Source: an uncultured Alphaproteobacteria bacterium (lineage in GTDB: Bacteria; Pseudomonadota; Alphaproteobacteria; CAAHEQ01; UBA3637). From it: DNA of 64,000 bases. The stretch spans positions 155,530 to 219,529 of the forward strand of contig CASEYR010000001.1 in NCBI GenBank assembly GCA_949292205.1, read 5' to 3'. A program made the translations under genes and the position numbers. Under the pieces are notes generated by a model. The model was not told where the DNA came from. It was given only the letters and a program-made list of their open reading frames with translations, and did no database searches. Position 1 is the stretch's first letter. The number at the start of each line of letters is the position of its first letter. Below, piece after piece: positions 2 through 42,924 of this stretch.

Positions 2-1453
2 ATGCACCCTGTCAAGTTCTACGAAAAGGGGAGTATCCCGTTGGAGTTTGTTTCCTCTCGTCAATGGTTTATCAATATTTTAGATTATAAAAAAGAGCTG
101 TTGGAATTGGGACGCAAAATTAAGTGGACGCCGGCTCATATGCAATCACGCTATGAAGCTTGGGTTGATGGCTTAAATCAAGATTGGTGTATCTCTCGTC
201 AACGCTTCTTTGGGGTTCCCTTCCCTGTTTGGTACAAAGTTAAAGAAAATGGAGAAATCAATTATGATGCTCCGATTTTTGCCGAACGCTCTCAACTTCC
301 AGTCGACCCGATGACAGATGTCCCAGCCGGATATGCTCCGGAACGACGAGGCGTTCCAGGGGGATTCGTCGGAGATAAAGATGTGATGGATACGTGGGCA
401 ACCAGCTCTGTCACTCCGCAAATTGCTATGGCTCATGCTCCGGAAGGACACCACTTGTCTATGCCCTTCGATATCAGACCGCAGGCTCATGATATTATTC
501 GGACTTGGGCTTTCTATACAATCATGAAGTCTTTTGCTCACACAGGGAAAGAACCTTGGCATGAGGCTCTTATCAGTGGATTCATCTTGGATCCGGATCG
601 TAAGAAAATGAGTAAGTCCAAAGGAAACGTCGTAACACCGATTGACTTATTAATTAAGCACTCTGCCGATGCTGTTCGGTATTGGGCTGCCAGAGCAAAA
701 CTGGGGATTGATACGGCTTTTGAAGAACAAATCATGGAGCAAGGGCGTAAATTGACTATGAAGATTTTTAACGCCAGCAAGTTTGTCTTTATGATCTTGG
801 ATAAGTCCGGTGTTGCTTTTTCTAATGATTATCGCCGCCATATTACGGCTTCGGTGGATAAAGCTTGGGCTGCTCGCCTGGCCGCTGTTGTTGAAACTGC
901 TAATAAATCCTTTGAGGCTAATGACTACGCTTTTGCTTTGGAAATGACGGAAAAATGCTTCTGGGATTTCTGCGATAACTATCTGGAACTGGTTAAAGGG
1001 CGTGCTTATAGCGATCATGCGGACTCAGCCGTTGCAACATTGATGTTGACAATCGATGTTTTAATGCGGTTGTTTGCTCCGTTCCTGTCTTTCACAACAG
1101 AAGAAATTTGGCAGTCTCGTCCTTGGGGGCATGACGAAAAATCCATCCACGTTTCTTCTTTCCCTCAAGTTTCTGAATTAAAAGAAATTGTCGGAGATCA
1201 GGCTGTTTATGATAAGGCCGTTGCTGTTTTGAACTTAATCCGCAAGGAAAAAGCCGAACAAAAACGGTCTTTGAAAACGCCGGTGATTGAATTAACTATC
1301 CAAGGAGATTCAAAAACAATTGATTTGGCAAAAGAGGCTGAAGAAGATATTCTGAATGCCGGTAACGTGAAAGTATCTCCTAATTGGGTATCCGGTGAGA
1401 ATCTGACTCTGGCTACTTGCGTTTTTGGAGAAGACGAAAAGAAACAAAAATAA
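2..1453 (+). CDS. valS: valyl-tRNA synthetase, C-terminal portion (5' end lies outside window)
   Basis: ORF open at window edge; class I aaRS KMSKS motif (KMSKSKGNVV); anticodon-binding region and C-terminal coiled-coil tail typical of ValS. Confidence 0.9.
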   Translation: MHPVKFYEKGSIPLEFVSSRQWFINILDYKKELLELGRKIKWTPAHMQSRYEAWVDGLNQDWCISRQRFFGVPFPVWYKVKENGEINYDAPIFAERSQLPVDPMTDVPAGYAPERRGVPGGFVGDKDVMDTWATSSVTPQIAMAHAPEGHHLSMPFDIRPQAHDIIRTWAFYTIMKSFAHTGKEPWHEALISGFILDPDRKKMSKSKGNVVTPIDLLIKHSADAVRYWAARAKLGIDTAFEEQIMEQGRKLTMKIFNASKFVFMILDKSGVAFSNDYRRHITASVDKAWAARLAAVVETANKSFEANDYAFALEMTEKCFWDFCDNYLELVKGRAYSDHADSAVATLMLTIDVLMRLFAPFLSFTTEEIWQSRPWGHDEKSIHVSSFPQVSELKEIVGDQAVYDKAVAVLNLIRKEKAEQKRSLKTPVIELTIQGDSKTIDLAKEAEEDILNAGNVKVSPNWVSGENLTLATCVFGEDEKKQK

Positions 1454-1477
1454 ATACATTCTAGTATGTTATGATAA

Positions 1478-1514
1478 CTCTCGGATAAGATTCAACTTGT
1501 CCGAGAGTTTTTAT
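1478..1514 (+). terminator. rho-independent terminator downstream of valS
   Basis: 12-bp stem ctctcggataag/cttgtccgagag (one G-U pair), 6-nt loop, then TTTTTAT; 25 nt after valS stop. Confidence 0.6.
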
Positions 1515-1662
1515 GATTCGAACGTAACACTACCTGCGTAAGCAGGTAGATGTAGACATACCAGCCCAGCCGTTAGGCTTGCGAAGCTTTTGGGCTGGGC
1601 GAACGTGGCGAACGTCGTTCGGAACAGATAACACCACTTGCGTTAGCGAGTGGAAGTTTATT
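1513..1662 (+). repeat. structured intergenic repeat family, copy 1 (full length, ~150 nt)
   Basis: Near-identical to 19420-19566 and, in reverse orientation, 37551-37646; contains hairpins ctacctgc-GTAA-gcaggtag and cacttgc-GTTA-gcgagtg. Confidence 0.7.
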
Positions 1663-18355: not shown

Positions 18356-19369
18356 ATGGAAAATATTTTATTTTTTGATACAGATAAACAACTGCGTGAT
18401 TTTGCTGAAGATCACCCCATTGAAAATGTTAATATGGTGTTTTTTGATAAAGGGTTGAATGCGATATCCCCAAAAGTATTAGAGCCATATTTAGATACTC
18501 GTATTATTTCAGGCTTTATTCACTCGGAAACATTATCCAATGATAAATTGGATTTATTTCCAAACTTAAAGTTGATTGCAACACGTTCAACAGGCTTTAA
18601 TCATATTGACTTGGAATATTGTAAAAAAAGAGGGATTTTGGTTGAAAATGTTCCTTCATATGGTGCAACAACGGTTGCTGAGTTTGCTTTTGGTCTTTTG
18701 CTGGCTCTGGCTCGTAAAATTATAGAATCAAAAAATGATATGGCTCATAATCGAATTGAAACATCTAATTATATGGGCTTTGACCTGATGGGAAAAACGT
18801 TGGGCGTTATCGGAACAGGCTCTATCGGACGTCATATGATTCAAATTGCTCAGGGCTTTGGAATGAAAGTTATTGCTTACGATCCTTTTCAAAATCCAGC
18901 ATTAAAAGATTTATACGTTTCGGATTTGAATACGATTTATCAAGAAAGTGATATCATTTCTTTACATGTTCCTTCAACACCAGAAAACTATCATATGATT
19001 AATGAAGCCGCTTTCAATCAAATGAAAAAAGGGGTTATCATTATCAATACTGCCAGAGGAGATTTGATTGATACTCAAGCCCTGTATTTTGCTTTAAGAA
19101 AAGGAATTGTCGCCGGTGCCGGTTTGGATGTTCTGGAAAACGAAGACTTTTTGTTACATGATGAAGTAGCTACTTCCCCCAGAATGAGTGATAATGATTT
19201 TCTGTTAGATTCGGCAATGAATTTAAAGCTGTTGCAATTTAAAAATGTTATTGCAACCCCTCATATTGCTTTTAACTCTATTGATGCCATTAATCGTATT
19301 AATGCAACGACTTTTGATAATATAGCTAATTTTATCACTGGTAAAATAACGAATAATGTCATTAAATAA
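18356..19369 (+). CDS. D-isomer-specific 2-hydroxyacid dehydrogenase (LdhA/PGDH-like)
   Basis: NAD-binding GVIGTGSIGRHM, catalytic-domain architecture. Confidence 0.8.
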   Translation: MENILFFDTDKQLRDFAEDHPIENVNMVFFDKGLNAISPKVLEPYLDTRIISGFIHSETLSNDKLDLFPNLKLIATRSTGFNHIDLEYCKKRGILVENVPSYGATTVAEFAFGLLLALARKIIESKNDMAHNRIETSNYMGFDLMGKTLGVIGTGSIGRHMIQIAQGFGMKVIAYDPFQNPALKDLYVSDLNTIYQESDIISLHVPSTPENYHMINEAAFNQMKKGVIIINTARGDLIDTQALYFALRKGIVAGAGLDVLENEDFLLHDEVATSPRMSDNDFLLDSAMNLKLLQFKNVIATPHIAFNSIDAINRINATTFDNIANFITGKITNNVIK

Positions 19370-19390: not shown

Positions 19391-19420
19391 AGCCCCTGCT
19401 GAAAATAGCAGGGGCTTTTA
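19391..19420 (+). terminator. rho-independent terminator of dehydrogenase gene
   Basis: agcccctgc-tgaaaata-gcaggggct then TTTA. Confidence 0.6.
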
Positions 19421-19566
19421 CGATTTGAACGTAACACTACCCGCGTAAGCGGGTAGATGTAGACATACCAACCCAACCGTAAGGCTTACGGAGCTTTGGG
19501 GCTAGGCAAACGAAGTTTGAATAGGCTAATACCACTTGCGTTAGCGAGTGGAGGTTTATTTTTTGA
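19420..19566 (+). repeat. structured intergenic repeat family, copy 2 (full length)
   Basis: About 80% identical to copy 1, with compensatory changes in two stems (cccgc/gcggg versus cctgc/gcagg; caaac-gaa-gtttg versus cgaacg-t-cgttcg). Confidence 0.7.
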
Positions 19567-36454: not shown

Positions 36455-36541
36455 GCCTCTGTGGCGAAATTGGTAGACGCGACAGACTCAAAATCTGTTG
36501 ATGGCAACATCATGCTGGTTCAAGTCCGGCCAGAGGTACCA
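36455..36541 (+). tRNA. tRNA-Leu (anticodon CAA), long variable arm
   Basis: Acceptor gcctctg/cagaggt (G1-U72), anticodon stem acaga/tctgt with loop ctCAAaa, variable arm, T-arm, encoded CCA. Confidence 0.9.
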
Positions 36542-37550: not shown

Positions 37551-37646
37551 CATAAACTTCCACTCGCTAACGCAAGTGGTGTTATCTGTTCCGAACGACG
37601 TTCGCCCAGCCCAAAAGCTTCGCAAGCCTAACGGCTGGGCTGGTAT
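37551..37646 (-). repeat. structured intergenic repeat family, copy 3 (5'-truncated, reverse orientation)
   Basis: Reverse complement matches copy 1 from ataccagcccagcc... to ...gcgagtggaagtttat, lacking the first hairpin and the 9-nt duplication. Confidence 0.6.
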
Positions 37647-38496
37647 GTTAAAACATCATAAGATAAGATGGATCATGTCTCTTTTGACTCCTCATGATTG
37701 ATGGTTTAAATTAAATATAGAAATGAGTATATAAATACTTTTTTTAAAATGCAAGCAAAAAGTATTATCTCCTTATTTTTAGAGTTTTCAATGACATTGA
37801 TTAAAAACACGCGGTACATCCCTATACAATATCCTTTAAAGGTATATCCATAGCGTTATAGATATAAAGTTTTACAAAAATAAATATTAAAAAACTCCAA
37901 AAGAGTATCTTTTTCGTTTTTCAGGAAAGATGATTATAAGGAGATTTACGAATTGTGATACCCGTTAAAATCAATCCGAAATGGTTTTTTTTATTGTTTT
38001 ACAATTGGTTGTGTGGATTCGATAATTACCCTTGTAGAAAGAGTATATAGCTGTAAATTATCAAACTTTTGGGGTGTGTTTTTTGTAAAAAAATAAGTGG
38101 GATTAGCTTAAAAAAGTTGATATTTTTTTTATTTCTTGTTAAAATTGACTACCAAGATTTTATTACATCAAATATCACAAGAGGCACTATGAACCATTGG
38201 ACAGAACTAAGTATTGAATACGCAAATCAGAAAAGTTACTTAGATGATCTTTTCTCTGTTTATCCAACTATTCCAAAGGGTATTAGGGATATTAACCAGT
38301 TGATGTGGAACAAAGTTGAAACTTTTGTAATGAACGGAATAATGAGGAACTTGTAACTTCTTGTCATAAGGGCAGGTTTAGATGAATTGTTCAAATTGTG
38401 ATTGAAAGGAAAGGCTTTCAATTAAACGATATAAATCATCAATTTCTTTGAAATGATTAGCTCGGTATTCGCAAAGCACGCTGTACCAAAAATTGT

Positions 38497-38523: not shown

Positions 38524-38537
38524 TATTAGTTGGATAT

Positions 38538-38612
38538 CTGGTGACATACTACCGCTTGGATTCTAGTGACATACTACCGCTTGGATTCTGGTGACATACT
38601 ACCGCTTGCCAC
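38538..38612 (+). repeat. 3 x 25-bp perfect or near-perfect tandem direct repeats (iteron-like) upstream of pilin-like gene
   Basis: ctggtgacatactaccgcttggatt / ctagtgacatactaccgcttggatt / ctggtgacatactaccgcttgccac. Confidence 0.8.
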
Positions 38613-38903
38613 ATCTATATAAAAGGAATCTTTTGACAATCTATTTCCTTAACACCCCATTTCCTTGATTCCGTTGCCCAATTGGCTGACGTTAAGTTAA
38701 TATCTTTTGATTAACTATTATTAAGCAGAATTTTCATAATCTGCTCTTTTCTGACAAATCGTATTGTTGAAATCCGATCGTTCCATAAAAATGGAACTAT
38801 AACAAATTCTTTTTAATAAATGAATCTAAACATCACAAATCTATTGACTTTCAAAATGGTTTATGACATTATGAAAAAAAGTATTAACGGGGAGTATTTT
38901 GTT

Positions 38904-40322
38904 ATGCGTAAAGAACAAATCAGTATGGAATCCGGACGGAGTATGGTTGAGGTCTTGGGTGTTCTGGCTTTGGTCGGATTACTGACGATTATGGGAATTA
39001 TCGGCATATTCTTTGCCATTGACAAAAATATGGCTAATACCATTGTTCACGATTCAAAAATTGCTTTTATGGAGATGAAAACGCCGTCAACAAAACCCTC
39101 TTTAGAGTGGAGCTCTATTTTATTCCAGCCGGTTTCCCAAAAAACAATGACCGTTCGTCGTGATTTTTTAGGGCGAGATTTTGTAAAAGCCGACAATATA
39201 GACCAAGGCGTTTGTAGACAAATGCTGAGTATGCGGGTTGAAAATGTCTTGAACTTTTACAACTTGGATAATACCGAGATGACTTCGTGTCTTGAAACAA
39301 ATGATATTATTATAGATTGGAATGGATTTGGTCCCCCTGCCGTTTGTCAAACCGTGTCGGATTGCGATGTTCCGAATGAACCGCCTTTTGAAGGAATCTG
39401 CTCTGATCAGGGACAATGCCAAGCTTGCCCCACCTATCAAAAACCAAACGCGAATCGCACAGCGTGTGTTTGTGATCCGGAACAAGCCGTCACTTGCACC
39501 TTAAATCAGGAAAATTGGTGTTGCGGTCCGGATTTGATTTGTGGCGATACTGTCGGCGAATGTATTGAGTCAAACTATACATGTGCCTATAACTTTTACC
39601 CGAACGGAGCACCCGGCACAATCTTTTACACAGATTGTAGTTATGTCGTTTCCGATCAAAACAATGTGTCGGAATATGGCGGGGATTGCACCTATGTCAT
39701 TCAAGAAACCGGAGATTCCAACAAGTGGGTAGACGGCACGGGAACAGAGCAAACGATTTACAAACCAGCCTCCGGCAATCGTTTTGCAACAGCCGGAAAA
39801 GGATGTCCCGCCAATCAATATTGTGCCGTTTTATGGGTTGACGATGACGGCGTTTGGAAGGCCGGTGAAACCAAAACGGCTCCTAACAATGCAACCGGTG
39901 TTTTATGGGGAAAATGTCAAATGTTATCTTCCTATGACCAAACCCCTATCACAAAATACAAAAACGGTTACGGCTTGGTAACGGTTAATCAGGGATGTCC
40001 GGCAGATCAATACTGTGCCGTTTTATGGACGTTACAGGAATGGACACCCGATATACAAACGCCAAAGGCCCCCAATGATGCAACGGGTATTTTATACGGG
40101 CGGTGCCAAATGTTATCTGCCTATGAACAAGAACCGTTATCCAAAAATGAAGCCGGAAACACCCGTTATCAAGTGGTTCAGGGATGTCCCGCCAACACCT
40201 ATTGCTATCTGAATTGGGAAACGGATACCGATTGCACCACCGTTTCCAACGATAAAACAGGGACAATTTATGGGGCCTGTGCCCAACTGAACAGTCGAGG
40301 AACTTGCCCGTATGAGAAATAA
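38904..40322 (+). CDS. prepilin-like N-terminus, Cys-rich secreted protein with three ~60-aa internal tandem repeats
   Basis: GGGGAG RBS; MRKEQISMESG|RSMVEVLGVLALVGLL (Gly then Glu at +5, hydrophobic helix; Flp/type IV prepilin-like, atypical Arg at +1); repeats QGCPAxQYCAVLW...NxATGxLxGxCQMLSxYxQxP; stop overlaps avd start. Confidence 0.55.
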   Translation: MRKEQISMESGRSMVEVLGVLALVGLLTIMGIIGIFFAIDKNMANTIVHDSKIAFMEMKTPSTKPSLEWSSILFQPVSQKTMTVRRDFLGRDFVKADNIDQGVCRQMLSMRVENVLNFYNLDNTEMTSCLETNDIIIDWNGFGPPAVCQTVSDCDVPNEPPFEGICSDQGQCQACPTYQKPNANRTACVCDPEQAVTCTLNQENWCCGPDLICGDTVGECIESNYTCAYNFYPNGAPGTIFYTDCSYVVSDQNNVSEYGGDCTYVIQETGDSNKWVDGTGTEQTIYKPASGNRFATAGKGCPANQYCAVLWVDDDGVWKAGETKTAPNNATGVLWGKCQMLSSYDQTPITKYKNGYGLVTVNQGCPADQYCAVLWTLQEWTPDIQTPKAPNDATGILYGRCQMLSAYEQEPLSKNEAGNTRYQVVQGCPANTYCYLNWETDTDCTTVSNDKTGTIYGACAQLNSRGTCPYEK

Positions 40323-40710
40323 TGAGGTTCTGCCCATTTACATAGAGGCCTATAACCTAACCCAGGATATTTTTAAGAAAACCGTCAAGTTTCCAAAAGA
40401 ATACAAATTTTTACTGGGAACACAGTTGAACGAGGCATCAATAGAGCTATGCTGCCTGATAACCAACACCGCCAGAGCGGCTCAAAAATCAGTGTTGTTG
40501 GAAGGTATTTTAAACCAGTTGGATAAAATAAAAATTGAATTCAGACTCTGTGCGGATTTTAAACTGTTAAGCAACCAACAACAGGCATCCATAGCCACAC
40601 GTTTAGAGAAAATAACGGGACAAGCGATTGCCTGGTTGAAAAGCGAAAGGAGGAAACAATCCATAACAAGTATGCCGGAGTCAGGAACAACTCCGAGTTA
40701 TCCTGAGTGA
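40312..40710 (+). CDS. avd: accessory variability determinant (Avd)-like small protein
   Basis: 132-aa predicted helical basic protein immediately upstream of TR and RT, as in DGR avd-TR-brt cassettes. Confidence 0.55.
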   Translation: MRNNEVLPIYIEAYNLTQDIFKKTVKFPKEYKFLLGTQLNEASIELCCLITNTARAAQKSVLLEGILNQLDKIKIEFRLCADFKLLSNQQQASIATRLEKITGQAIAWLKSERRKQSITSMPESGTTPSYPE

Positions 40711-40808
40711 GCATTTTATTTTTTAATTTTAAAAGGGTCGATCACCGCCTTTTGATGGTAAACACAATAGAATCGACTGGTACCTTGGGCGAAGTCCCGA
40801 AAACAGGG

Positions 40809-40917
40809 CGTGCCCAGTGCAAATAATGCATATAACGTGAATCTTTCTTCCGGTGCGGTCAACAACAACAATCGTGACAACAACAACACCGCCCTCTGCG
40901 TTGGATTCTGAGCTTTT
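40809..40917 (+). other. DGR template repeat (TR), 109 bp, adenine-rich (AAC/AAT codon runs)
   Basis: Matches reverse complement of 42538-42646 at 98 of 109 positions; all 11 mismatches are A in TR. Confidence 0.85.
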
Positions 40918-40942
40918 GAAATTAAAATAGCATGATATTATT

Positions 40943-42310
40943 ATGGAACAACTAAACTTTTACGATTTAGTATCTGATTTAACATTACAAGAGGTCTTTC
41001 AGTCCTATTTGGATTGTCGTCGAAACAAACGTCGTAGTTTGTCTTCTTTGCGTTTTGAAAGAGAATACGAACATAATCTGATTCGATTGTATGATGATAT
41101 TATACGCCGACGTTATCAGAGCCGCCCCTCCAAGGCCTTTATTGTGGATAAACCAGTCCAACGAGAGGTGTTTGCCGCCGATTTTCGGGATCGGATTATC
41201 CACCACCTAATCATCGGGTATTTAATGCCCGTGTTTGAACGTATTTTTTTAAATGAATCATACAGCTGTCGCGTCGGAAAAGGGACTCTATTCGGTATTC
41301 AATCCTGCGCTCAAATGATGCAAATTTGTTCCAATCATTACACAACGGATTGTTATGTGTTAAGGCTGGATATTCACGGCTTCTTTTTTCATATAGATAA
41401 ACGTATTTTATATCGAAAATTGAAACAGTTAATCGATACGCAATACCATCATGTAAATAAATCGACCATCTTGTTTTTAATCCGAGAAGTGTTGCGCGAT
41501 AATCCGACTGAAAATTGTAAAATCAGCGGATCTAAAAGCGCATGGATTGGACTTCCAAAAACAAAAAGCCTGTTTTTCAGCGGCCGAAACAAAGGACTTC
41601 CCATCGGTAATCTGACCAGCCAAGTTTTTGCCAATTTTTATTTGAATGATTTTGACCATTATGTCACTGGGTTGGATAAAGATTTGTTTTATGGACGATA
41701 CGTCGACGATATCGTCATTATGCACCCCAGCCGGGAGTATCTGCTTCAAGTCAAACAACACATCGACACTTATTTAAGGCAAGAGCTGGGGTTAACATTA
41801 CACCCGAAAAAGGTATCATTACAACATTATGCCAAAGGGTTCGCCTTTGTCGGCGCCTATATCAAACCCGGACGCGTTTATCCTGGCAAAAGGTTGCGTC
41901 GATCATTTTATTTAAAGATGCAACACCTGAACACGTTATGGGAAAACAACACACAAAAAATGAACCGAGCGTTGCTTGAAAAGACGTTATCAAGCATCAA
42001 TTCTTATTTTGGGTTATTAAAACACTTTGACGCCTGGCGGATCAAATTAAAGGGATGGAATATGTTAAACGAACAAATCCGAAGTGTTTTTCGAACAAAT
42101 GAACGGTTAAACAAAGTCTGGATAGAGCCCCAAACAAAACGCCAGATGATTGATGATGCCCGAAAAATGTTCACAGAGCCACTCAGGTATCCCAAGAAAT
42201 ATAAAAATCTTGTCCAAAAATGGAATCGCCTGTCACCGGAAGAGGCACTCAAATCTTGTTTAGGTCCTTCTTACATCACGATACCAGAAGACGAAAAAGA
42301 ATCCACTTGA
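40943..42310 (+). CDS. DGR-type reverse transcriptase
   Basis: RT motifs including LPIGNLTSQVFANFYLNDFD (DGR hallmark IGxxxSQ) and FYGRYVDDIVIM (YxDD). Confidence 0.9.
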   Translation: MEQLNFYDLVSDLTLQEVFQSYLDCRRNKRRSLSSLRFEREYEHNLIRLYDDIIRRRYQSRPSKAFIVDKPVQREVFAADFRDRIIHHLIIGYLMPVFERIFLNESYSCRVGKGTLFGIQSCAQMMQICSNHYTTDCYVLRLDIHGFFFHIDKRILYRKLKQLIDTQYHHVNKSTILFLIREVLRDNPTENCKISGSKSAWIGLPKTKSLFFSGRNKGLPIGNLTSQVFANFYLNDFDHYVTGLDKDLFYGRYVDDIVIMHPSREYLLQVKQHIDTYLRQELGLTLHPKKVSLQHYAKGFAFVGAYIKPGRVYPGKRLRRSFYLKMQHLNTLWENNTQKMNRALLEKTLSSINSYFGLLKHFDAWRIKLKGWNMLNEQIRSVFRTNERLNKVWIEPQTKRQMIDDARKMFTEPLRYPKKYKNLVQKWNRLSPEEALKSCLGPSYITIPEDEKEST

Positions 42311-42430
42311 GATGCATTTGCATACTGTAATGCGATTGGAGAACGTTTGATTGACGCAACGACAGAGTGTGTTAAAACGATGTGGACAGGCGAAAGTGGA
42401 ATTGGGAAAAGAGGAAAAGACCGAGGATAG
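42311..42430 (+). pseudogene. decayed fragment of a C-type-lectin-like DGR target paralog, in frame directly after the RT stop
   Basis: Translates DAFAYCNAIGERLIDATTECVKTMWTG, compared with SAFAWCDAIGGQLIDITTECIKTTGTTG in the intact target (about 65% nt identity); no start codon. Confidence 0.5.
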
Positions 42431-42537
42431 CAGGGAAATAAAAACGGCCGCTTCGCGGCCGAGACCTGTCCGCCGGGGACGTCGGACAGGAAAAAAAGTC
42501 TGCCATAAAAGGCAGACTTAGTTAAAAAAATGTTAAT

Positions 42538-42646
42538 AAAAGCTCAGAATCCAACGCAGAGGGCGGTGATGCTGCTGTCACGATTGCTGGTGGTGACCGC
42601 ACCGGAAGAAAGATACACGAAATATGCATAAATTGCACTGGGCACG
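42538..42646 (-). other. DGR variable repeat (VR) at 3' end of target gene
   Basis: Cognate of TR; substitutions A->T x6, A->C x2, A->G x3 relative to TR, none at non-A positions; 3' 27 nt identical to TR. Confidence 0.85.
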
Positions 42647-42924
42647 TTTTGTGTCCATACCAAAGCACTTCCAGTCTCTGTTAAATTCGGGCACCCCGTT
42701 GTTCCGGTTGTTTTAATACATTCCGTTGTTATATCAATCAGCTGTCCCCCGATTGCATCACACCAAGCAAAAGCACTCCACCAATTCATATTAGTATTAC
42801 TTTGACAATAACGGGTGCCGTCCAAGCCCGTCACAACGGTTCCACTACCCCCCGCGCATGATTCGGCAACCGCCGATGTTGACAACAAAACAGATAAACA
42901 AATCATCCCTATGTATTTTTTCAT
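42544..42924 (-). CDS. DGR target: small secreted C-type-lectin-fold-like variable protein (126 aa precursor)
   Basis: Sec signal MKKYIGMICLSVLLSTSAVA; WSAFAWCDAIGGQL motif (CLec-like WxxAxxxCxxxGxxL); C-terminal 34 aa encoded by VR. Confidence 0.8.
   Translation of the reverse strand: MKKYIGMICLSVLLSTSAVAESCAGGSGTVVTGLDGTRYCQSNTNMNWWSAFAWCDAIGGQLIDITTECIKTTGTTGCPNLTETGSALVWTQNVPSAIYAYFVYLSSGAVTTSNRDSSITALCVGF

Follow-up and report, generated by a model that had tools for sequence, protein, structure and literature searches.

The DNA analysed here is a 64,000-nucleotide (nt) stretch of contig CASEYR010000001.1 from an uncultured Alphaproteobacteria bacterium (hereafter the window), and it contains three copies of a short, structured, intergenic repeat. 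Copy 1 lies behind an intrinsic terminator downstream of an open reading frame (ORF) for a class-I aminoacyl-tRNA synthetase, copy 2 lies behind the terminator of a 2-hydroxyacid dehydrogenase gene, and both are full-length and on the forward strand; copy 3, on the reverse strand, lacks the first ~45 nt (Table 1). A preliminary description of this DNA had reported the three copies, and they lie where it placed them; we refined their bounds to 1515-1661, 19422-19559 (copy 2 ends at 19559, not at 19566) and 37552-37648.

Copies 1 and 2 are 88% identical across 97 nt and 80% identical across 56 nt, and the central stem of copy 2 is partly decayed. Copy 3 matches copy 1 at 100% over 51 and 55 nt, the 9-nt internal duplication of copy 1 aside. 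Diagnostic 17-20-mers occur two to three times in the window compared with 0.02-0.04 occurrences expected from shuffled sequences, and a covariance-model scan of the window returned these three copies only. The duplication reported earlier for copy 1 is real, with GGCGAACGT repeated in tandem at 1598-1606 and 1607-1615, and it is private to this copy, being unique among 51 distinct copies (absent from the 50 others).

The family extends well beyond the window. We scanned species-representative genomes with exact patterns, metagenome contigs with a pattern for the right end, and IMG/VR with a degenerate pattern; loci retrieved in this way carry the prefix L. The species-representative genomes yielded five further copies, three of which are in one metagenome-assembled genome (MAG) labelled 'uncultured Alphaproteobacteria'. 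A second such MAG (L010) carries a copy that is identical to window copy 1 minus the duplication and that lies behind a different terminator, and a Candidatus Woesebacteria MAG (L003) carries a divergent relative. The right-end pattern found 94 loci in metagenome contigs, ~85 of them true copies and nearly all from human-gut assemblies, while the IMG/VR scan added one more short, distant relative (L115), its other matches being due to chance. In a profile search of all retrieved loci, we obtained 106 matches that represent 63 distinct sequences and ~36 independent insertion sites. Two main forms were recognised, i.e. a long form, as in the window, and a short form without 8 nt of the 5' hairpin.

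The hosts are Gram-negative gut MAGs, bacteria of the candidate phyla radiation (CPR) and virome contigs, and none is a Bacillus. BLAST searches with the element gave no match in 72,556 plasmids, Bacillus plasmids included, and no match in all complete Escherichia coli genomes. Among a collection of phages, only three unverified human-faecal 'Bacteriophage sp.' contigs matched, and these may be bacterial DNA because one of them carries a PAS-domain ORF. Clustering of 534 flanking ORFs revealed no conserved neighbour genes, just the same few loci resampled across metagenomes. Finally, in a widely sampled type of gut contig (L013, 5179-5386; L045, 1-1088), copies of the element alternate with tandem repeats of 86 nt in units of about 257-420 nt within a long non-coding region.

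The element is very probably mobile and non-autonomous. One 140-nt sequence is present unchanged at six different flanks, two of which are on one contig. Moreover, L031 and L059 contain copies in head-to-tail arrangement, in which the second copy begins right after the TTTAT that ends the first. The copies in L097, L070 and L035 are chimeric in sequence when compared with those in L012 and L025, i.e. the left flank of one locus is combined with the right flank of another and the switch is inside the element. These chimeras indicate recombination between copies or misassembly of metagenomes at the repeat. The copies disrupt metagenome assemblies and give rise to chimeras in them: contig L001 stops within window copy 1, and unrelated flanks are joined through recombinant copies. 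The right flanks shared by L012 and L070, and by L025, L035 and L097, also raised the possibility of a larger, composite transposon whose left end would be the element; this candidate was rejected because the junctions are inside the element, the copies are chimeric and the far boundary has no end-like hairpin. Copies are best annotated as mobile-element repeats and not as small RNA (sRNA) genes.

Architecture and selection on structure

The element is ~130-140 nt long, starts with G(A/G)TT(C/T)GAACG after TTTAT and ends with ...GGAAGTTTAT. It has no terminal inverted repeats, the left end, GATTCGAACG, being unrelated to the reverse complement of the right end, ATAAACTTCC. Instead, it carries two hairpins in the same orientation, H1 near the left end and H3, which ends 8 nt before the right boundary, both with 8-bp stems and 4-nt loops. 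When their 5' flanks (TAACAC) are included, H1 and H3 match each other at 21 of 28 positions in direct orientation, a value reached in ~0.1% of hairpin-preserving shuffles (p about 0.001). A longer hairpin domain, H2, lies between them, and the stretch that directly precedes H3 can form a further pairing with the 5' end of the element. Compared with shuffled sequences, the two full copies fold with z scores of -6.9 and -5.7, and the reverse strand with a z score of -6.3. AACA or AATA is found directly 5' of both hairpins; in IS609 of E. coli, AAAA occupies this place at the left hairpin, beside TTAT.

The loops had been described as GNRA-type, which holds for part of them only. In the H1 loop, GTNA, each of the four bases occurs at N; the H3 loop is GTTA in most copies, GTCA being also among the loops, and the H2 apex is a C-GNA-G triloop in which N is T (25), A (10), C (9) or G (2). 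C-GNA-G and GNNA loops with sheared G·A closure form very stable mini-hairpins in single-stranded DNA, e.g. d(GCGAAGC). The C-GNA-G and GTNA loops, together with the strand-specific G·T pairs described below, are no less compatible with single-stranded DNA than with RNA.

The preliminary description had inferred selection from compensatory changes between copies 1 and 2. In the 5' hairpin, the T-A to C-G change in copy 2 is real and concerns a single pair only. The stem written as cgaacg/cgttcg in copy 1 and caaac/gtttg in copy 2 is one possible pairing, but it excludes pairing of its 3' arm with the 5' end of the element; this local hairpin is absent in the short subfamily and present in L115. 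The 3' hairpin is invariant within the window, but elsewhere it varies with compensation (CCACCGGT/GCCGGTGG, CCATCGGC/GCTGATGG and CCCCGTGGC/GCCCGGGG).

Across the family, 88.7% of the cells are paired compared with 87.5% in column shuffles, the covariation score is 0.151 compared with 0.135, and the RNAalifold covariation term is small. Cells with changes on both sides of a pair number 38 compared with 23.8 in the shuffles, and they derive from a handful of events. Covariation within the family is real but modest as an argument for selection; the distant relatives show it clearly. Both L003 and L115 retain the order TTTAT, ~15-21 nt, H1 (GTAA loop), ATG, H2, a spacer, ...ATACC, H3 and A(A)G(C/T)TT(C/T)AT, despite stem sequences that differ from those of the main family. 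A structure-aware covariance model recovered both at full length, with 28.1 bits for L003 and 39.5 bits for L115, whereas a sequence-only model from the same alignment gave partial matches with 11.7 and 17.9 bits, respectively. Because the structure-aware model outscores the sequence-only model on these relatives, we conclude that the structure is conserved, supporting the earlier view that this is a genuine family with selected hairpins and not junk. Moreover, in L115 both hairpins are changed in concert (CCCCGGGC-GTAA-GCCCGAGGG and CCCCGTGGC-GTAA-GCCCGGGG), which is the pattern expected if one protein recognises both.

The types of mismatch in the stems differ between the strands. Mismatches of the G·T type outnumber those of the A·C type 69 to 6 in H3 and 135 to 6 in the end-to-end pairing. 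Because the mismatches in these two parts are strand-specific, it must be the top strand that folds, either as RNA or as single-stranded DNA. A further reading, in which the 3' loop would correspond to a single-strand origin (ssoA CS-6, TAGCGT), was rejected; the corresponding TAGCGA is not conserved across the family.

Insertion sites

TTTAT directly precedes the element in 31 of 43 flank classes, and TTTAC, ATTAT, TTTGT and TCAAT are found in the others. The right ends, which were found without requiring TTTAT, end in TTTAT, rarely in CTTAT, ATTAT or AATAT, and in TTCAT in L003. The two pentamers are unequal in at least seven copies, i.e. TTTAC on the left and TTTAT on the right in window copy 2 and L084, TCAAT and TTTAT in L099, TTTAC and ATTAT in L035, TTTAT and CTTAT in L059, TTTAT and AATAT in L014, and TTTAT and TTCAT in L003. 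These unequal pairs argue against a target-site duplication. The right-end variants CTTAT, ATTAT and TTCAT showed no interpretable covariation with the bases 5' of the hairpins in a test for guide sequences.

The element is strongly associated with intrinsic terminators, the T-tail of the terminator being its favoured position. Counting hairpins of at most -13 kcal/mol that end within 9 nt of the junction, we found a strong hairpin directly before ~27 of the 36 independent sites (~75%). In the window background, the same test was positive for 18 of 457 TTTAT sites overall and for 9 of 70 intergenic ones. Where an upstream ORF ends within 300 nt, it is co-oriented with the element in 21 cases and opposed in 7. 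A terminator scanner also flagged H3 together with the tail of the element as terminator-like; therefore, the right end of the element resembles its preferred target. An analysis of replication-strand bias by the GC skew of the window was uninformative, as the skew follows gene orientation.

Two observations concern other sequences at such sites. A second, unrelated structured repeat of ~130 nt (TACAGAAAACCCCGAGTTTAC...GGGAGATATCTAT; family B), with similar hairpins near both ends, sits a few bases after TTTAT or after terminators. It lies right behind the element studied here at six loci, and in L099 the order is B, element, B; it is neither in Rfam nor in the window. A homology of family B to the ends of IS609 was considered and rejected because the two have only 8-mers in common, which is not significant. 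In addition, a contig binned as a giant-virus MAG (L111/L112, reverse strand, ~4806-4892 of L111) carries a degenerate right-end-like sequence behind a terminator hairpin, i.e. GGCGTAGCGAGTCGAAGTTTT followed by CCAAAGGC-GTTA-GCCGAAGG-AACTTTAT, with a weak model score of 17.4 bits (E 0.35).

Candidate mechanisms of movement

Elements of the IS200/IS605 type have no inverted repeats, carry similar subterminal hairpins on one strand and insert 3' of a short motif (TAM) to which their last bases (TEM) are related (PMC10055086); they are moved as single strands by a Y1 HUH transposase (Meers et al., PMC10055086). TTTAT and TTCAT are the experimentally defined TAMs of ISGst2 and ISGst5, respectively, and PATEs are gene-less IS200/IS605 derivatives, some of which carry guide RNAs (PMC10055086). 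The element resembles the PATEs of the ISGst family of Geobacillus stearothermophilus in that it has no genes, no terminal inverted repeats, subterminal hairpins on one strand, a position 3' of a five-base motif (TTTAT in the case of ISGst2), a right end that carries a related pentanucleotide, and many copies, and both are presumably mobilised in trans. Unlike the PATEs, it is very compact (~130-140 nt), has a conserved central hairpin domain and a flank motif that equals the end motif, and shows a very strong association with terminator hairpins; moreover, for the element neither a cognate full-length element nor a transposase (TnpA) was found in the searches described below.

With moderate confidence, we propose that the element is a non-autonomous, PATE-like derivative of the IS200/IS605 type that moves by a single-strand mechanism with the help of a putative enzyme encoded elsewhere in the genome. 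A Y1 HUH transposase, TnpA, would bind both hairpins on the top strand while this strand is single-stranded, e.g. on the lagging-strand template. It would cut behind both TTTAT motifs, the flanking and the terminal one, giving a single-stranded circle that would re-insert 3' of another TTTAT. As the right end of the element (hairpin and AAGTTTAT) looks like a terminator followed by TTTAT, the element itself would be a target, and insertion there would give head-to-tail copies. Hairpin covariation would then reflect selection for single-stranded DNA hairpins recognised by the transposase, and the H2 domain, together with the pairing of the 5' end with the bases before H3, may keep both ends close to each other or serve a role as RNA.

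IS609 of E. coli K-12 (L110, 8162-9909; NC_000913.3, 1503130-1504908) illustrates that such a site can also be taken by a classical member of the IS200/IS605 family: it starts right after the ydcL terminator and TTTTTAT, and its hairpins, of 8 bp with 4-nt loops, are at distances of 16 nt (left) and 10 nt (right) from the respective ends. The right hairpin of IS609 (CCACGTCC-TTCA-GGGCGTGG-AGG) is identical to H3 at 16 of 23 positions and shares with it the T·G wobble at stem position 6 (p ~0.002 from shuffles). Unlike the element, IS609 is 1.75 kb long, carries tnpB (insQ) and a tnpA pseudogene, ends in TCAA and has no similarity to the element at the level of BLAST.

Several points weigh against a TnpA-based mechanism. 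No TnpA or TnpB gene was found in the window or in ~700 kb of flanks by tblastn with IS200 and IS609 proteins and by Pfam searches on 30 ORFs; the tblastn queries were an approximate IS200 TnpA sequence and E. coli IS609 InsQ and YncK, with limited sensitivity for tnpB. Similarly, none of the ~90 right-end matches is part of a longer gene-bearing element, and the complementarity between guide and cleavage site that defines the IS200/IS605 family was sought in the ends and not demonstrated. As the flank and the terminal motif are the same pentamer, filled sites are formally also compatible with a 5-bp target-site duplication. No preference for terminator hairpins has been described for TnpA, and the one seen here may be a result of selection instead. 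Finally, the well-conserved H2 domain is not needed for recognition by TnpA, the bias in mismatch types is reversed in H2 (15 G·T compared with 33 A·C), and H2 and the end-to-end pairing leave room for a role as RNA.

The lack of a TnpA gene in these searches would also fit a mobile repeat of the 'special class' to which bcr1 of the Bacillus cereus group belongs, in which TTTAT is duplicated on insertion and the mover is a site-specific recombinase or a DDE-type transposase. Published descriptions of bcr1 report a repeat of ~155 bp that is bounded by 5-bp TTTAT direct repeats, is transcribed, varies in distribution between strains and has an undescribed mechanism of movement, and they liken its multi-stem fold with compensatory changes to a cruciform. 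The element, with TTTAT on both sides, a size of ~140-150 nt, a conserved multi-stem fold and compensatory changes, agrees with this description. It differs from bcr1 in its hosts, bcr1 being reported only from the B. cereus group, and in the duplication, which for bcr1 is described as 5 bp, whereas the left and right pentamers of the element differ in at least the seven copies listed above. Moreover, the absence of terminal inverted repeats speaks against this alternative, while a single-strand mechanism agrees with the direct orientation of the hairpin pair and with the G·T pairs specific to the top strand, and we consider the alternative unlikely. Because bcr1 may itself be IS200/IS605-like, it is only partly a rival to the proposed PATE-like origin.

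It is rather unlikely that the structure acts mainly as RNA made by read-through from the upstream gene, with mobility being secondary. Such an RNA might be an omega guide RNA that serves a TnpB nuclease in trans, the right flank being the guide, or an sRNA or stabiliser derived from the 3' untranslated region. The co-orientation with upstream genes, the G·U-tolerant stems on the sense strand, the retention of H2 and of the long-range pairing beyond what a transposase needs, and the 16-22 bits that the structure model gains on the distant relatives would all be accounted for, and PATEs are reported to 'often encode omega RNAs' (PMC10055086). By contrast, low transcription is expected because the copies sit behind strong terminators, no promoter-like site was found in or before the copies, and the central stems are decaying in copy 2 and others. 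The loops GTTA, GTCA and C-GNA-G are outside the classic GNRA set of RNA. Neither a tnpB gene in the vicinity nor a tnpB-linked copy of the right end was seen, the search for tnpB similarity having limited sensitivity; all right-end matches are short gene-less elements. With Rfam 15 at the gathering threshold, only two tRNAs were found in the window, and permissive searches with both full copies, L003 and six loci gave sub-threshold chance matches only, with none to any family, HEARO included. The Rfam search suggested in the preliminary description thus identified no family, and its option of an sRNA family is not borne out.

Group IIC introns home to sites that directly follow intrinsic terminators, and they point in the same direction as the gene that is terminated there. 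This habit resembles that of the element and, together with a reverse transcriptase gene in the window, could suggest a retro-element relic or a SINE-like element mobilised by reverse transcriptase, possibly by that very enzyme. We regard this as very improbable. Group IIC introns are retro-elements of >600 nt with a ribozyme of domains I-VI and a reverse transcriptase, whereas the element has 140 nt, starts with GAUUCG and not with GUGYG, has no hairpin resembling domains V/VI, no A-tail and no intron match in Rfam. Moreover, the reverse transcriptase of the window belongs to a complete diversity-generating retroelement (DGR) with its own pair of template and variable repeats, and most host contigs have no reverse transcriptase near the copies.

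The other option of the preliminary description, a REP/RPE-like element, pointed the right way, since the behaviour of the family is that of a mobile, non-autonomous element. Like REP/REPIN sequences with their RAYT enzymes and like miniature inverted-repeat transposable elements (Correia, ERIC and RUP), the element is short, structured, intergenic and often close to terminators. However, REPs are single palindromes of 20-40 nt moved by a domesticated Y1 HUH enzyme, and the miniature elements have terminal inverted repeats, which the element lacks, and target duplications, against which its unequal pentamers argue.

We conclude that this is a new family of a known, PATE/bcr1-like kind, fairly ordinary and not a demonstrated sRNA. 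As a small representative of hairpin-ended elements with TTTAT as their motif, it connects the PATEs derived from IS200/IS605, the bcr1 repeats with their unexplained mechanism, and the tendency of elements of this sort to lie behind terminators. A broader and more doubtful possibility is that it represents a hitherto unrecognised lineage of minimal single-strand transposons with a very broad host range (CPR bacteria to gut Proteobacteria-like MAGs) and with intrinsic terminators as their specific homing sites. The target (hairpin, T-tract, AT) would be recognised because of its resemblance to their own right end, and H2 would be a trans-acting guide RNA for a TnpB-type nuclease or an end clamp; in that case, this class of mechanism would also take in the unexplained bcr1-type TTTAT repeats of Bacillus. 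Should a cognate TnpA or TnpB be identified, these enzymes would have in the 140-nt element a natural substrate of very small size, which might also be a guide-RNA scaffold, and interest in the family would rise if the terminator preference were mechanistic or if H2 were such a scaffold.

Other features of the window

The window contains the complete DGR mentioned above (40312-42924), in which 11 of the 11 mismatches between template and variable repeat are at adenines of the template repeat (Table 1).

Table 1. Positions of the repeat copies, their parts, neighbouring features and family B
Feature	Sequence	Position	Strand	Basis or remark
Class-I aminoacyl-tRNA synthetase ORF, upstream of copy 1	Window	2-1453		Pfam tRNA-synt_1 and Anticodon_1
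Intrinsic terminator hairpin, host sequence, target context of copy 1	Window	1476-1509	+	Terminator scan
TTTAT left-flank target motif (TAM-like), copy 1	Window	1510-1514	+	Sequence
Copy 1, full-length long form	Window	1515-1661	+	138 nt plus 9-nt duplication; covariance model 130 bits
Left-end hairpin H1, copy 1	Window	1530-1549	+	CTACCTGC-GTAA-GCAGGTAG; starts 15 nt inside left boundary
Central hairpin domain H2, copy 1	Window	1561-1598	+	CCAGCCCA...TGGGCTGG; C-GAA-G apex 1582-1586
9-nt tandem duplication, copy 1	Window	1598-1615	+	GGCGAACGT twice
Right-end hairpin H3, copy 1	Window	1634-1653	+	CCACTTGC-GTTA-GCGAGTGG
Right tail, copy 1	Window	1654-1661	+	AAGTTTAT; element-encoded terminal TTTAT (TEM-like) 1657-1661
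Terminator hairpin, host context of copy 2	Window	19391-19416	+	After 2-hydroxyacid dehydrogenase gene (18356-19369)
TTTAC left-flank motif, copy 2	Window	19417-19421	+	Unlike the element's own TTTAT end
Copy 2, full-length, more diverged	Window	19422-19559	+	H1 19437-19456, H3 19532-19551; covariance model 116.8 bits
Copy 3, 5'-truncated	Window	37552-37648	-	Left-end hairpin lost; right end intact at 37552
bAvd-like ORF of DGR	Window	40312-40710
Template repeat of DGR	Window	40809-40917
Reverse transcriptase of DGR	Window	40943-42310
Variable repeat of DGR	Window	42538-42646		At 3' end of ORF 42544-42924 (- strand)
Family B	L077	1645-1780
Family B	L099	Around 418, 5420 and 5695	-
Family B	L108	6150-6300
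Family B	L086	2875-3040
Family B	L018	97-150
Family B	L084

An ORF immediately upstream of the DGR (38820-40322) encodes 500 amino acids with no Pfam match and contains internal repeats of ~189 nt. Between copy 3 and this ORF, a non-coding, AT-rich stretch of ~1.1 kb includes a perfect to near-perfect tandem repeat of three 25-nt units (TCTGGTGACATACTACCGCTTGGAT; 38537-38611). The two tRNA genes of the window are at 2057-2128 and 36455-36538. The latter is followed by the methyltransferase gene, the truncated copy 3, gene fragments and the DGR, an order that resembles a tRNA-associated genomic island.

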